Assembly (NCBI RefSeq): GCF_041886205.1
Contig: NZ_CP169029.1
Strand: one strand, 5' to 3'
Length of the DNA: 64,000 nucleotides
Origin: Escherichia coli
GTDB taxonomy: Bacteria; Pseudomonadota; Gammaproteobacteria; Enterobacterales; Enterobacteriaceae
Made by a program: the position numbers and the translations under genes. How positions within the stretch are numbered: position 1 is the stretch's first letter; each line of letters starts with the position of its first letter. Below the pieces are notes generated by a model. That model saw only the letters and a list, made by a program, of their open reading frames with translations, searched no databases and was not told where the DNA came from. Positions 59,597-64,000 of this stretch are shown here, piece after piece.

Positions 59597-60487
59597 ATGA
59601 TGTTTAAGCAATACCTGCAAGTAACGAAACCAGGCATCATCTTTGGCAACCTGATCTCGGTGATTGGGGGATTCCTGCTGGCCTCAAAGGGCAGCATTGA
59701 TTATCCCCTGTTTATCTACACGCTGGTTGGGGTGTCACTGGTTGTGGCGTCGGGTTGTGTGTTTAACAACTACATCGACAGGGATATCGACAGAAAGATG
59801 GAAAGGACGAAGAATCGGGTGCTGGTTAAAGGCCTGATCTCTCCTGCTGTCTCGCTGGTGTACGCCACCTTGCTGGGTATTGCTGGCTTTATGCTGCTGT
59901 GGTTTGGCGCGAATCCGCTGGCCTGCTGGCTGGGGGTGATGGGCTTTGTGGTTTATGTCGGCGTTTATAGCCTGTACATGAAACGCCACTCAGTCTACGG
60001 CACATTGATTGGTTCGCTCTCCGGCGCTGCGCCGCCGGTGATTGGCTACTGTGCAGTAACCGGCGAGTTCGATAGCGGCGCAGCGATCCTGCTGGCTATC
60101 TTCAGCCTGTGGCAAATGCCTCACTCCTATGCCATCGCCATTTTCCGCTTTAAGGATTACCAGGCGGCAAACATTCCGGTATTGCCAGTGGTAAAAGGCA
60201 TTTCGGTGGCGAAGAATCACATCACGCTGTATATCATCGCCTTTGCCGTTGCCACGCTGATGCTCTCTCTTGGCGGTTACGCTGGGTATAAATATCTGGT
60301 GGTCGCCGCGGCGGTTAGCGTCTGGTGGTTAGGTATGGCTCTGCGCGGTTATAAAGTTGCTGATGACAGAATCTGGGCGCGCAAGCTGTTCGGCTTCTCT
60401 ATCATCGCCATCACTGCCCTCTCGGTGATGATGTCCGTTGATTTTATGGTGCCGGACTCGCATACGCTGCTGGCTGCTGTGTGGTAA
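59597..60487 (+). CDS. cyoE: protohaem IX farnesyltransferase (haem O synthase)
   Basis: 296-aa from [18 protein letters not shown]; ORF-track start at 59552 is over-extended. Confidence 0.95.
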
Positions 60488-60506
60488 CACAACCTCTCAG
60501 TTAAAA

Positions 60507-60527
60507 AGGTGCTACGGCACCTTTTTT
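60507..60527 (+). terminator. rho-independent terminator of the cyo operon (AGGTGC-TACG-GCACCT + T6), A-run upstream so potentially bidirectional
   Basis: 6-bp stem, 4-nt loop, TTTTTT tract 20 nt after the cyoE stop. Confidence 0.7.
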
Positions 60528-60544
60528 ATTGTCTGAGATCAGAG

Positions 60545-60563
60545 ATACGGCTAATAACCGTAT
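60545..60563. promoter_or_regulatory. inverted repeat IR-A (ATACGG-N7-CCGTAT), candidate operator upstream of the antitoxin promoter -35
   Basis: Perfect 6-bp arms with 7-bp spacer read directly; same architecture as IR-B 55 bp downstream. Confidence 0.5.
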
Positions 60564-60566
60564 GTC

Positions 60567-60595
60567 TTGACAGAGTGAGCAGATGAACATAAATT
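60567..60595 (+). promoter_or_regulatory. candidate sigma-70 promoter of the antitoxin-toxin operon (-35 TTGACA, 17-bp spacer, -10 TAAATT)
   Basis: Consensus -35 hexamer at 60567-60572 and plausible -10 at 60590-60595, about 75 nt upstream of the antitoxin start. Confidence 0.5.
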
Positions 60596-60599
60596 AATC

Positions 60600-60618
60600 A
60601 TACGGTTGATAGCCGTAT
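60600..60618. promoter_or_regulatory. inverted repeat IR-B (ATACGG-N7-CCGTAT), candidate operator overlapping the predicted transcription start
   Basis: Perfect 6-bp arms with 7-bp spacer just downstream of the -10; contains the spurious ATG of the ORF-track frame at 60606. Confidence 0.5.
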
Positions 60619-60671
60619 TATGTATGAGATCGACTCCCTACGATTTCATTCAGTTAATCAAAGAGGTCATA

Positions 60672-60983
60672 ATGCCTGGAAAAACAGCCACTCTACCCGA
60701 TGTCGATAAAACGCTGAAAAATGCGCGGGTCGAACTCAAAACTAGTCCCGACGCCAAAAACAAACTTCGTGAAGCTGCGCAAGCCGTTGGGGTAGATTTA
60801 AGCGCTTTTATTTTGAGCGCTGCTATGGAACGCGCCGAAAGTGTGCTTGATAACCAACGTCGCCGTGAGCTTTCGAATCAAAGCTGGGAACTGATGAACC
60901 AACTCATCGCTGAACCTGCTCAACCGACGCTCGCCCTCAAGGCGTTAATGAAAAGGAAAAACAGCGATGGTCGACAAGCATGA
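60672..60983 (+). CDS. ribbon-helix-helix (DUF1778-like) antitoxin of a GNAT-type toxin-antitoxin pair
   Basis: 103-aa from MPGKTATLPDVDK, RBS AAAGAGG 6-7 nt upstream; RHH-like N-terminus (RVELKTSPDAKNKLREAAQAVGVDLSAFILSAAMERAESVL) resembling TacA/AtaR/KacA-type antitoxins; overlaps the toxin gene by 17 nt. Confidence 0.8.
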   Translation: MPGKTATLPDVDKTLKNARVELKTSPDAKNKLREAAQAVGVDLSAFILSAAMERAESVLDNQRRRELSNQSWELMNQLIAEPAQPTLALKALMKRKNSDGRQA

Positions 60984-61509
60984 AGAGATTACTCTGCCCA
61001 TAGTCCTCTCCTGTAATTATCAGTCTGATATTACTTATCCTGGGCAAAAACAGTTTGATTGCGGTAACCCTGTTATCGATAAATTTGTACGCGCATCGCT
61101 AAAGAAAAGTGTGCGTAATAGCGACTGTGCGGCTAAAGCACTTATTGACAGACAAAGTGGTGAACTGATCGGCATCTGTACTTTTACGGCATATTCGCTG
61201 GAAAAACAACGCGTTTCTGGCGTCCTTCAGGGTTCACAACCTTCAGAAATTGGTGTTGTCAGATTAGTCATGTTGGGGGTAGCACGGAAGTATCAAAAGC
61301 GGGGCTTTGGTCAGGACCTACTATGTGATTTTTTTGAACATGTAAAAATAATTCACCAGGCATTACCAATTAAAGGGGTTTATCTTGATGCTGACCCTGC
61401 CGCCATTAATTTTTATGCTCGTCTCGGCTTTGTTCAGCTTTCAGCGACACCAAATGCTTTTGGTGCTGTACCTATGTTTTTGGCGATTCAGCATATTCTC
61501 GCGGCTTAG
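60967..61509 (+). CDS. GNAT-family acetyltransferase toxin (TacT/AtaT/ItaT/KacT-like, probable aminoacyl-tRNA acetyltransferase)
   Basis: 180-aa ORF with acetyl-CoA-binding motif A (VRLVMLGVARKYQKRGFG), motif B (AINFYARLGF) and N-terminal FDCGNPVIDKFV typical of GNAT toxins; immediately downstream of and overlapping an RHH antitoxin. Confidence 0.85.
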   Translation: MVDKHEEITLPIVLSCNYQSDITYPGQKQFDCGNPVIDKFVRASLKKSVRNSDCAAKALIDRQSGELIGICTFTAYSLEKQRVSGVLQGSQPSEIGVVRLVMLGVARKYQKRGFGQDLLCDFFEHVKIIHQALPIKGVYLDADPAAINFYARLGFVQLSATPNAFGAVPMFLAIQHILAA

Positions 61510-61564
61510 ATTATTATCGCCACCCGCCAGGGCAAGTTTTGCCTCAGCCGGGGGCTGAGCAGCG

Positions 61565-62500
61565 TTACCACTTTTGTTCAATTGCCCCCGCTTTCAGCAA
61601 CTCCACATCCTTGCCGTTAATGGTTGCCGTTGCGGCAACGATTGTGGTCCTTACAGTTGCACAAGATTTTCGCTCAAATTCCGGTTTATAAAGAATAAGA
61701 GACGAATTACTGGTAAATGAACCAAATAGGTAATCAGTAAAGCTAATATTCAGCCGGTTTAAACCGAAAGGCGCGAAGCCAACCGTTTGGTTAATCTCCT
61801 TACCGGATGGGCGACGAATGCTGAATGTCACGCGAAGGTTGGCCACTTCGCCTAATTTATTGGTGGTGGCGAAGAGGCTATCCATGCAGGAAAAACCTTC
61901 ATCTAAAAAATTATCCCGCATCCCAGAACGGGTAACCGTGATCACGGGTAACGTATCGTCAACCGTTTTTCTGTCAATCATGTCTTTTCGACAAGTAGCC
62001 AGAAAGTCTTCCGGGCCACCATAAATGTGGACACCTTTATCAAGATATTCCTTCGCTTTCTTACAATCTACCTCAACATACTGACCATTGGCGTACATCA
62101 TGCCCAACCTGGACCATGCTAAATTCACACCGTATTGCGCGGCCTGATTAAATAGCGCATACGCTTTGGCATAATCCACCCGCACCTGCTCGCCGTCGTA
62201 GTAGATACTCCCCAGCGCTAACGGTGCTTCTCTGTCACCGTGTTTAGCGGCTAACTCGAACCATTTAATCGCTTCCTGAACATCAGGTTTGGTATCATAG
62301 CGAGGCTGATAATATTCCCAGCCTAACAGGCTCTGCGCGTCGGCACCCCCCGATTCAGCCATTTTATGCAGTGTATTTATAACATTGGGCGCAGGTTTAC
62401 CACCGTATATGCTGTCATACAATTCATGTGCTTTCTCGCTTGCCACCACGCCTGGTGAAACTATTAGCATTAAAGAAAATAGTATTCTTTTAGTTAACAT
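61565..62500 (-). CDS. secreted Sel1-like repeat (TPR-like) protein with uncharacterised C-terminal domain of about 150 aa
   Basis: 311-aa from MLTKRILFSLMLIVSPGVVASE (Sec signal peptide, AAAGG RBS upstream); about three Sel1-like repeats (e.g. AIKWFELAAKHGDREAPLALGSIYYDG, YAKAYALFNQAAQYGVNLAWSRLGMMYANGQ); C-terminal half not recognised; the ORF-track start at 62560 is probably over-extended. Confidence 0.8.
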   Translation of the reverse strand: MLTKRILFSLMLIVSPGVVASEKAHELYDSIYGGKPAPNVINTLHKMAESGGADAQSLLGWEYYQPRYDTKPDVQEAIKWFELAAKHGDREAPLALGSIYYDGEQVRVDYAKAYALFNQAAQYGVNLAWSRLGMMYANGQYVEVDCKKAKEYLDKGVHIYGGPEDFLATCRKDMIDRKTVDDTLPVITVTRSGMRDNFLDEGFSCMDSLFATTNKLGEVANLRVTFSIRRPSGKEINQTVGFAPFGLNRLNISFTDYLFGSFTSNSSLILYKPEFERKSCATVRTTIVAATATINGKDVELLKAGAIEQKW

Positions 62501-62907
62501 GTATACCTTTATGTTCTCTCTGTCATATATTTCCATAATAATTAACCACCAAACATCCATTTAATGAATAAATACAGTGCCATAAAGGCCCAAGTAATAA
62601 GCACACATTTAACCTGAAACATTATCATCGATGTCACCAAATCGTTTATTTAGTGAGATAAAAATAGCATGTTCGTAAGATAAAAAATGCACATAGCAAT
62701 CAAGAAATAATATTATTACTTTTGATGTAAAACTATTTAGCTTTAAGATTCATTTTTTTCAACATATAGAGCATTCATTTTATGAATGCAAAATAAACAT
62801 ACCTGACACACAAACTATTCTCCTCTGTAATATTTTCTCATTAACACTCTGTTTACCCAACATGCGCTCCGCACTACACTATGTGGGCATTTTTTTAAGG
62901 GGTGGTA

Positions 62908-64000
62908 ATGAACGATTATAAAATGACGCCAGGTGAGAGGCGCGCGACCTGGGGTTTAGGGACCGTATTCTCGTTGCGCATGCTGGGCATGTTTATGGTT
63001 CTGCCGGTTCTGACCACGTACGGCATGGCTCTGCAAGGTGCCAGCGAAGCATTAATCGGTATTGCCATTGGTATTTATGGTCTGACTCAGGCCGTTTTTC
63101 AGATTCCGTTTGGCCTGCTTTCCGACCGCATTGGTCGCAAACCATTAATTGTCGGTGGGCTGGCGGTGTTTGCCGCCGGTAGCGTTATCGCTGCGCTTTC
63201 CGACTCCATCTGGGGAATTATTCTGGGCCGGGCGCTACAAGGCTCTGGAGCAATTGCCGCCGCCGTTATGGCGCTGCTTTCCGATCTCACGCGCGAACAA
63301 AACCGCACCAAAGCGATGGCGTTTATCGGCGTGAGCTTTGGCATTACCTTTGCCATTGCGATGGTGCTTGGCCCGATCATCACTCACAAACTTGGGCTGC
63401 ACGCGCTGTTCTGGATGATCGCTATTCTGGCAACAACCGGCATTGCGTTGACCATTTGGGTTGTGCCCAACAGTAGCACTCACGTACTTAATCGTGAATC
63501 CGGGATGGTGAAAGGCAGTTTCAGTAAAGTACTGGCGGAACCGCGACTGCTGAAACTCAACTTTGGCATTATGTGTCTGCATATTTTGCTGATGTCGACG
63601 TTTGTTGCCCTGCCAGGGCAACTGGCTGATGCGGGGTTCCCGGCGGCTGAACACTGGAAGGTCTACCTGGCAACGATGTTAATCGCCTTTGGCTCGGTCG
63701 TGCCTTTCATTATCTACGCTGAAGTTAAGCGCAAAATGAAGCAAGTCTTTGTCTTCTGCGTCGGGTTGATCGTGGTTGCGGAAATTGTGTTGTGGAACGC
63801 ACAAACGCAGTTCTGGCAACTGGTGGTCGGCGTGCAGCTTTTCTTTGTGGCGTTTAATTTGATGGAAGCCCTTCTGCCCTCACTTATCAGTAAAGAGTCG
63901 CCAGCAGGTTACAAAGGTACGGCGATGGGTGTCTACTCCACCAGCCAGTTTCTTGGCGTGGCGATTGGCGGTTCGCTGGGCGGCTGGATTGACGGCATGT
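62908..64000 (+). CDS. yajR: MFS transporter YajR, N-terminal part (CDS runs off the window end)
   Basis: Open frame from ATG 62908 (MNDYKMTPGERRATWGLGTVFSLRMLGMFMVLPVLTTYG...) to window end without a stop; absent from the ORF track; recognised as YajR. Confidence 0.93.
   Translation, partial: MNDYKMTPGERRATWGLGTVFSLRMLGMFMVLPVLTTYGMALQGASEALIGIAIGIYGLTQAVFQIPFGLLSDRIGRKPLIVGGLAVFAAGSVIAALSDSIWGIILGRALQGSGAIAAAVMALLSDLTREQNRTKAMAFIGVSFGITFAIAMVLGPIITHKLGLHALFWMIAILATTGIALTIWVVPNSSTHVLNRESGMVKGSFSKVLAEPRLLKLNFGIMCLHILLMSTFVALPGQLADAGFPAAEHWKVYLATMLIAFGSVVPFIIYAEVKRKMKQVFVFCVGLIVVAEIVLWNAQTQFWQLVVGVQLFFVAFNLMEALLPSLISKESPAGYKGTAMGVYSTSQFLGVAIGGSLGGWIDGM

Follow-up and report, generated by a model that had tools for sequence, protein, structure and literature searches.

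A weak stem-loop without a uridine tract between the convergent itaT toxin and Sel1-repeat genes of Escherichia coli, in the 3' tail of an itaRT segment

The window, a stretch of 64,000 nucleotides of Escherichia coli DNA (contig NZ_CP169029.1 of assembly GCF_041886205.1), contains the gene order cyoABCDE (+ strand), itaR, itaT, a short spacer, a gene for a Sel1-repeat protein (- strand) and yajR, the last starting at 62908. Positions 60400-62900 are 100% identical to strain 6EVA. The main features of the locus are as follows.

60503-60526, + strand: intrinsic terminator of cyoE, AAAAAGGTGC-TACG-GCACCTTTTT, -13.4 kcal/mol, with a T5 run, bidirectional in form
60528-60531: left copy of an ATTG direct repeat flanking the itaRT segment
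60545-60618, + strand: itaRT promoter region, with TTGACA-17-TAAATT at 60567-60595
60672-60983, + strand: itaR, antitoxin gene of the DUF1778/TacA family, ribbon-helix-helix (PF08681 TacA1, E 1e-17)
60967-61509, + strand: itaT, GNAT toxin gene (match to PDB 7BYY, E 4e-118 over residues 1-180)
61510-61564: convergent spacer of 55 nt, from the itaT stop to the stop of the Sel1 gene
61565-62500, - strand: gene for the Sel1-repeat (TPR-like) protein, 311 aa in RefSeq; the mechanical ORF reaches 62560
61581-61584: right copy of the ATTG repeat, at the right junction and within the last codons of the Sel1 gene

The upstream gene pair is the itaRT module described in 2018 (PMC6125619) and by Zhang et al. 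in 2020 (PMC7367177): the toxin is equal or nearly equal to characterised ItaT, and the DUF1778/TacA antitoxin gene lies directly upstream and overlaps the toxin gene by 17 nt. According to these two papers, ItaT acetylates aminoacyl-tRNA and the ItaRT complex represses its own operon; the earlier paper (PMC6125619) also reports the toxicity of ItaT and a virtually identical pair in BL21(DE3). The module is carried by BL21(DE3), by E. coli W, by E. coli HS and by O26, O111 and O104:H4 strains. Its promoter is bracketed by two palindromic ATACGG-N7-CCGTAT sites, at 60545-60564 and 60599-60618, which are mutually 90% complementary (an inverted repeat) and are the probable ItaRT operators; the first of them is kept in Pseudocitrobacter (L006), in CP057686 (L020) and in the related locus L024. 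A term search of the 2018 paper (PMC6125619) returned no "operator", "palindrom" or terminator, and "downstream" appeared twice, on other matters. Since that paper does not mention a terminator by this search, the hairpin and the cassette junctions described below can be regarded as a new, minor annotation of itaRT.

The N-terminus of the Sel1 protein resembles a signal peptide. Upstream of its gene (62450-62900) the GC content falls to 28-30%, and a scan of this region on the - strand revealed no sigma-70-like promoter. An 8-bp palindrome, GCATTCAT-TTT-ATGAATGC, is located there at 62771-62789. A functional link in defence between the Sel1 protein and itaRT was considered and rejected, as PADLOC gave no meaningful match. 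Moreover, no Sel1 homologue lies in the 3-kb flanks searched around the itaT homologues of Serratia, Rahnella, Superficieibacter, Edaphovirga and Buttiauxella, and two plasmid copies of itaT (Citrobacter, Serratia) have none among the genes annotated within 1.5-2 kb.

Together, the itaRT module and the Sel1 gene form a 2.3-kb islet (60531 to ∼62821) between cyoE and yajR. Of 5426 complete E. coli genomes, 1367 carry this islet, and K-12 has ∼17 nt in its place. The GC content of the islet is 43-48%, versus 52-57% in the flanks. One apparent exception to this arrangement, strain HH97 (L004, NZ_CP116409.1, 3440-4450), was taken at first for a Sel1 remnant devoid of the toxin-antitoxin pair, and was discarded as a corrupted, low-quality assembly of the same islet, rich in G runs; this stretch carries no annotated genes. 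Matches to E. coli "plasmids" of more than 1 Mb were likewise set aside, these being chromosome-sized records.

Related loci were collected by way of the Sel1 protein, from the contigs on which its homologues are encoded, and their comparison indicates that the gap between cyoE and yajR is a hot spot of variable content. It is empty in K-12, contains itaRT and one Sel1 gene in the window, and contains two Sel1 genes without itaRT in Escherichia sp. E4930 (L023). In Escherichia sp. E4694/E4385 and in Pseudocitrobacter the gap is occupied by itaRT and two Sel1 paralogues (311 and ∼499 aa), and in CP057686 by itaRT and two Sel1 genes. E. albertii carries a Sel1 gene and, after it, an ORF of 39 aa and one of 325 aa without a Pfam match. 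In L025, two extra small ORFs lie between its two Sel1 genes and itaRT is missing, and in L024 only itaR is present, with a gap of 305 nt in the place of itaT. The 499-aa Sel1 paralogue fills the yajR-side region in E4694/E4385 and CP057686, and from its presence there the window strain appears to have lost ∼1.5 kb upstream of its Sel1 gene.

The limits of the itaRT segment can be placed by comparison with E4930. In the window TATTG comes directly after the terminator of cyoE. The window shares the junction motif TTTTTTATTG/A with 8 of the 9 related loci that were compared (K-12 retains only TTTTTT). In E4930 TTTTTTATTG runs uninterrupted into CCCCC (the whole junction sequence reads TTTTTTATTGCCCCC), and the same sequence is split in the window by 60532-61580. 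Since E4930 is uninterrupted and ATTG is doubled in the window, the itaRT segment, ∼1053 bp with one copy of the repeat, includes the spacer and the hairpin, the latter sitting in the 75-nt 3' tail of the segment (61510-61584). As the right ATTG lies inside the last codons of the Sel1 gene, the segment also supplies the last 5 Sel1 codons and the stop. The C-terminus of the Sel1 protein varies with what lies downstream: after the sequence ...GAI it ends in IEQKW in the window, KNPPE in E4930 and HPKP in E. albertii. A direct repeat of 23 nt with 83% identity was also observed, GCTTTCAGCGACACCAAATGCTT at 61437-61459 (the 3' end of itaT) and GCTTTCAGCAACTCCACATCCTT at 61590-61612, the second copy beginning 6 nt past the right junction of the segment; it may be due to chance (0.03-0.3 expected, by a rough estimate) or may have been left behind by the recombination event from which the junction arose.

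In the two relatives L023 and L025, both of which lack itaRT, the Sel1 gene converges directly on cyoE, and the two genes have a common bidirectional terminator, AAAAAACCCGC...GCGGGTTTTTT, in which the stem is enclosed by an A-tract and a T-tract (AAAAAA...TTTTTT). The lack of a proper terminator beside the Sel1 gene of the window thus has an evolutionary explanation, and the comparison exemplifies a wider point on a small scale: the itaRT segment, situated beside the terminator, separates the Sel1 gene from the element that it has in common with cyoE in the itaRT-less relatives, and leaves it with a makeshift stem-loop and a different C-terminus.

The spacer between the two stop codons (TAG at 61507-61509 for itaT; TAA at 61565-61567 on the - strand for the Sel1 gene) has a GC content of 62%, with runs of five G and five C. 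Its structural features, and one that extends beyond it, are the following.

61543-61559, either strand: main palindrome CTCAGCC-GGG-GGCTGAG, 7-bp stem, -10 kcal/mol, without a T-tract
61530-61544, + strand: small hairpin GGGCAA-GUU-UUGCCU, a neighbour of the main stem with 2 nt in common
61546-61592, + strand: alternative, imperfect and stabler stem-loop, in which GGGGGC (61550-61555) pairs with GCCCCC (61584-61589)

The main palindrome had been pointed out in an initial annotation made from the sequence, together with its position between a convergent toxin gene and Sel1 gene and the absence of a uridine tract on both strands, and on all three points that description proved accurate. The sequence was read at exactly those coordinates: CTCAGCC (61543-61549) pairs without a mismatch with GGCTGAG (61553-61559), giving a stem of 7 bp with 5 G-C pairs, closed by the 3-nt loop GGG (61550-61552), and the stem lies 5 nt from one stop codon and 33 nt from the other. 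The first 8 bases of the tail contain 2 T on the + strand (CAGCGTTACCAC) and 1 T on the - strand (GCAAAACTTGCC), and the nearest T-run, TTTT at 61572-61575, begins 13 nt past the stem on the + strand. The feature had been made to start at 61530, so that it also covers the small hairpin, which is broken in the MRY15-117 allele described below.

In neither direction does the hairpin at 61543-61559 qualify as an intrinsic terminator. The uridine tract of such terminators starts 0-2 nt from the stem, and neither strand has one; similarly, no A-run of the kind found in bidirectional terminators adjoins the stem on the 5' side, where the + strand flank reads AAGTTTTGC. A scan with a consensus terminator model made no call at 61543-61559 on either strand, and the same scan called the cyoE terminator at 60503-60526. 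The likeness to canonical bidirectional intrinsic terminators, such as those of cyoE and E4930, is confined to a GC-containing stem-loop between gene ends. In contrast to the hairpin, which lacks both runs, these terminators combine an A-run, a stem and a T-run (T5-T6) with folding energies of -13 to -14 kcal/mol.

Most itaT homologues in other settings are better provided for in this respect. A strong hairpin lies directly 3' of the itaT stop in 6 of the 8 homologues examined (Citrobacter and Serratia plasmids; Serratia, Rahnella and Buttiauxella chromosomes; Edaphovirga), mostly followed by several T, with three T in the next eight bases in the case of Edaphovirga. Of the remaining two, Superficieibacter has no obvious hairpin, and Pseudocitrobacter has one that lacks a good T-tract. 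In view of the strong hairpins and T-runs elsewhere, the E. coli arrangement of itaRT is comparatively poor in terminators.

The folding energy of the hairpin is modest. As an isolated 17-mer it reaches -10 kcal/mol, compared with -13.4 for the cyoE terminator and -12 to -22 for the hairpins behind the itaT homologues, and the z-scores of the hairpin region against dinucleotide shuffles were -1.2 to -1.9. In its sequence context the main stem is out-competed, because the G5 run (61550-61554) can instead pair with a C-rich tract at 61518-61528 or with five C at 61585-61589. By partition function, the seven pairs had a probability of ∼0 on the itaT-sense (+) strand, whichever of the six contexts was tried, and of 0 to 0.73 on the Sel1-sense (-) strand, depending on the context.

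The competitor on the + strand raises the question of a leaky canonical terminator formed not by the palindrome but by the extended stem-loop, which is followed by UUUC. In the minimum-free-energy fold of the 101-nt + strand segment 61500-61600, this long imperfect stem-loop (61546-61592) indeed displaces the 7-bp hairpin and ends just before TTTC. Only three U follow it, though, and the scan made no call; its z-score was -1.8, it has no equivalent on the - strand, and its arms are hit by the same allelic substitutions as the hairpin (see below). A leaky terminator of this type is thus very unlikely.

Perfect stems of this kind (at least 7 bp, loop of 3-8 nt) were counted in several backgrounds. 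Shuffling the spacer produced one in 1.8% of cases, and when the window was cut into arbitrary 55-nt tiles, 27 out of 1163 (2.3%) contained one. The window as a whole contained 58 such stems, each loop length being counted separately, against ∼27.5 in Markov simulations with the same counting. Two of these stems belong to the neighbouring coding sequences (61448-61465 and 61623-61639). The hairpin thus exceeds chance only marginally. No Rfam family matched at E <= 1 across 60300-63000 on both strands.

Conservation was assessed with a 60-nt spacer query against complete E. coli genomes. The query was found in 1368 carriers, at exactly one place per genome; 1233 of these spacers were at least 99% identical to the query, 31 carried one mismatch, 102 carried four and two carried seven. 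The spacers of E. coli W and NEBExpress are identical to the 60-nt query. One representative of each variant class was then compared, together with Escherichia sp. E4694 and CP057686. The stems on the + strand of these alleles read as follows.

33E (class with one mismatch): CTTAGCC...GGCTGAG
MRY15-117 (class with four mismatches): CTCAGCC...GACTGAG
MFDS1019527 (class with seven mismatches): CTCAGCC-GGA-GACTGAA
Escherichia sp. E4694/E4385: CTCAACC...GACTGAG
CP057686: CTCAGCC...GATTGAG

All of the stem changes among the alleles are single transitions. In MRY15-117, the sole genome inspected from the class of 102, the A at 61554 breaks one pair on the + strand. No double-sided (compensatory) change was found on either strand among the six alleles, and in the test for covariation the shuffled controls equalled the observed alignment. 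Through G-U wobbles, 95% of the pair cells are kept on the Sel1-sense strand, versus 86% on the itaT-sense strand, in the six alleles. Among roughly five independent transitions in the stem, three leave a wobble in place on the Sel1-sense strand and the other two abolish pairing at their position on that strand, too few to speak of strand-specific conservation. The hairpin was as variable as the spacer around it: 6 of its 17 sites vary, compared with 11 of 38 in the remaining spacer and 6 of 53 in the coding flanks, such that no extra constraint on the hairpin relative to the rest of the spacer is indicated. The G at 61554, which perfects the palindrome, is confined to the major allele and 33E; the four divergent sequences compared, the Escherichia sp. 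sequence included, all carry A. Read by parsimony, this distribution makes the perfect stem of the major E. coli allele a derived condition.

In the three E. coli genomes with divergent spacers that were fetched (L003, L005 and L014), the Sel1 gene is annotated as a pseudogene. It is frameshifted in two of them (MRY15-117 and SWHEFF_69) and has an internal stop in the third (MFDS1019527); itaR and itaT are intact in each.

Outside Escherichia, a Pseudocitrobacter genome (L006) had the same gene order, with cyoE, itaRT and two Sel1 genes, the genes being 66-87% identical in DNA sequence to those of the window. Its spacer, of 36 nt, is unalignable with that of E. coli (36% identity) and contains a hairpin of different sequence (3544-3579 of L006), which is stronger and likewise without a good T-tract. 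The hairpin of the window, as judged from this comparison, is not conserved beyond Escherichia. The strong Pseudocitrobacter hairpin, ATCGGATGG...CCATCCGAT, may derive from a REP-like element. REP-like sequences (e.g., GCCTGATGGCGGCTATGCCTTATCCGGCCTAC) follow the Sel1 stop in L024 (2928-2970) and L025 (2928-2975), and are unrelated to the hairpin at 61543-61559.

On these grounds, the palindrome may be a product of chance without any role, a by-product of a GC-rich spacer, the transcript ends being set wholly elsewhere, by Rho, by terminator-like sites further on (61832-61851 on the + strand, 61224-61208 on the - strand) or by decay. The frequencies of such stems in shuffled spacers and tiles and the two further examples in the flanking coding sequence fit this account, as do the weak z-scores, the near-zero pairing probability in context on the + strand, the lack of covariation, the variability equal to that of the remaining spacer, the derived state of the perfect stem and the unalignable spacer of Pseudocitrobacter. 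Four observations run counter to it: the probability for this particular spacer is ∼0.02; a 3' stem-loop would be looked for at just this place, 5 nt past one stop codon and 33 nt past the other; wobbles retain the - strand stem in most alleles; and Pseudocitrobacter independently has a hairpin at the same position. We consider a chance palindrome a substantial possibility, nearly as likely as the reading preferred below.

A site that acts at the level of DNA could also be envisaged for a perfect 7-3-7 palindrome located within the itaRT segment, 21 nt from its right end; it might bind a protein (for instance as a second ItaRT operator), serve in recombination or be one copy of a repeat family such as REP. 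The hairpin does not resemble the operator-like ATACGG-N7-CCGTAT sites of the promoter and, unlike the multi-copy REP elements, occurs once per genome in the 1368 E. coli genomes; the operator and REP readings were rejected for these reasons. In addition, related sites are not in excess in the window (3 found versus 2.4 expected), the palindrome is imperfect in all of the divergent alleles and no Rfam family was matched. Any role of this sort is therefore highly improbable.

The reading that we prefer, with a probability of about one half, is that no efficient intrinsic termination takes place between the two genes, that Rho ends the untranslated read-through RNA and that the hairpin serves at most as a pause site or a barrier to exonucleases. 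RNA polymerase leaving either itaT or the Sel1 gene would be released inefficiently at the hairpin and would run into the antisense strand of the opposite gene. Since such antisense RNA is untranslated, Rho would end the read-through at C-rich, G-poor tracts, two of which were found.

61540-61637, + strand: C-rich, G-poor tract, candidate for Rho loading; C/G 1.65-1.73, 95th percentile of the window
61243-61340, - strand: C-rich, G-poor tract antisense to itaT, 220-320 nt past the Sel1 stop; C/G 2.1-2.4, ∼99th percentile

The ratios were measured in 78-nt windows (starts at 61540-61560 on the + strand), and a C/G above 1 is a loose criterion for Rho loading. On the Sel1-sense strand the ratio is ∼0.95 beside the stem and attains 2.1-2.4 only 220-320 nt downstream. 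The point of release by Rho would accordingly differ between the two directions, lying directly past the hairpin for the itaT-sense RNA and ∼220-320 nt further on for the Sel1-sense RNA. The terminator-like site at 61224-61208 follows the C-rich tract of the Sel1-sense strand, and the other, at 61832-61851, is on the + strand. As to the hairpin, its role would at most be to make the polymerase pause, or to block 3'-to-5' exonucleases, in which case steady-state 3' ends would pile up just past the stem. The read-through itself, the involvement of Rho and the exonuclease barrier are what we infer from the arrangement of the locus, and a literature search by locus tags and by itaRT found no transcript mapping for the itaRT-Sel1 locus.

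[quoted passage not shown] The hairpin resembles this class in having neither downstream uridines nor an upstream A-tract. The enrichment in C over G adjoins the hairpin on the itaT-sense strand and is 220-320 nt away on the Sel1-sense strand. The structures of Dar & Sorek are reported to be nearly equal to intrinsic terminators in stem and loop lengths and in folding energies, whereas the hairpin is weaker (-10 kcal/mol) and is out-competed in context.

Termination by Rho with the hairpin in a subsidiary role is favoured by the missing T-tract and the lack of a scan call, by the canonical terminator of L023 and L025, by the hairpins and T-runs of the itaT homologues, by the C/G signature of the type described in PMC6061677, by the 95% of pair cells that wobbles keep on the Sel1-sense strand and by the presence of a spacer hairpin in both Escherichia and Pseudocitrobacter, even though the two are unrelated in sequence. 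It is weakened by the marginal fold, the lack of compensatory changes, the class of 102 genomes with four mismatches (A61554 in MRY15-117) and the looseness of the C/G criterion. The proposal in the initial annotation that termination here is inefficient or Rho-dependent thus gains from the lack of a canonical terminator, from the C-rich tracts compatible with Rho in both directions and from the terminators of relatives. Its treatment of the hairpin as a meaningful element fares less well, the stem being weak, out-competed, devoid of covariation and not conserved beyond Escherichia. The hairpin is an ordinary, weak feature, and the toxin-antitoxin module beside it has been characterised before.

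A stem on both strands, without a U-tract and between convergent genes, also fits the description of a class of bidirectional terminators that act by collision (Wang et al. 2022, bioRxiv 10.1101/2022.10.23.513370). The terminators of that class are unlike intrinsic ones and independent of Rho; the hairpin positions the collisions, and the efficiency rises with the expression of both genes. At the present locus, the hairpin would pause the polymerases coming from both genes and fix the place of head-on collisions, and trailing polymerases would release them. With the collision-driven terminators of Ju et al. 2019, as far as they are described by Wang et al., the locus has in common the convergent genes, a hairpin in both directions and a non-intrinsic appearance. 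That mechanism works best for highly expressed pairs, whereas here an autorepressed operon (PMC6125619) faces a Sel1 gene behind an AT-rich region (28-30% GC) without an obvious promoter, and convergent traffic is therefore probably low. As the stem is in addition weak and not conserved, a collision-type terminator is improbable.

The initial annotation had also suggested that read-through could couple the expression of the toxin and Sel1 genes, which is speculation. If the Sel1 gene is left without a functional terminator wherever itaRT is present, read-through from it into the antisense strand of itaT is conceivable. Sel1 transcripts reading 200-350 nt antisense into itaT might then act as a cis-antisense RNA, or by interference, and lower the expression of the toxin relative to that of the antitoxin, with the A-to-G change at 61554 tuning the read-through, but we regard this as a very long shot. 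If it were true, antisense read-through from the Sel1 gene would give a type II toxin-antitoxin module a further layer of control at the RNA level, a small novelty in how such modules are regulated. The significance of the hairpin is otherwise small, amounting at most to a 3'-end annotation added to the characterised itaRT module.
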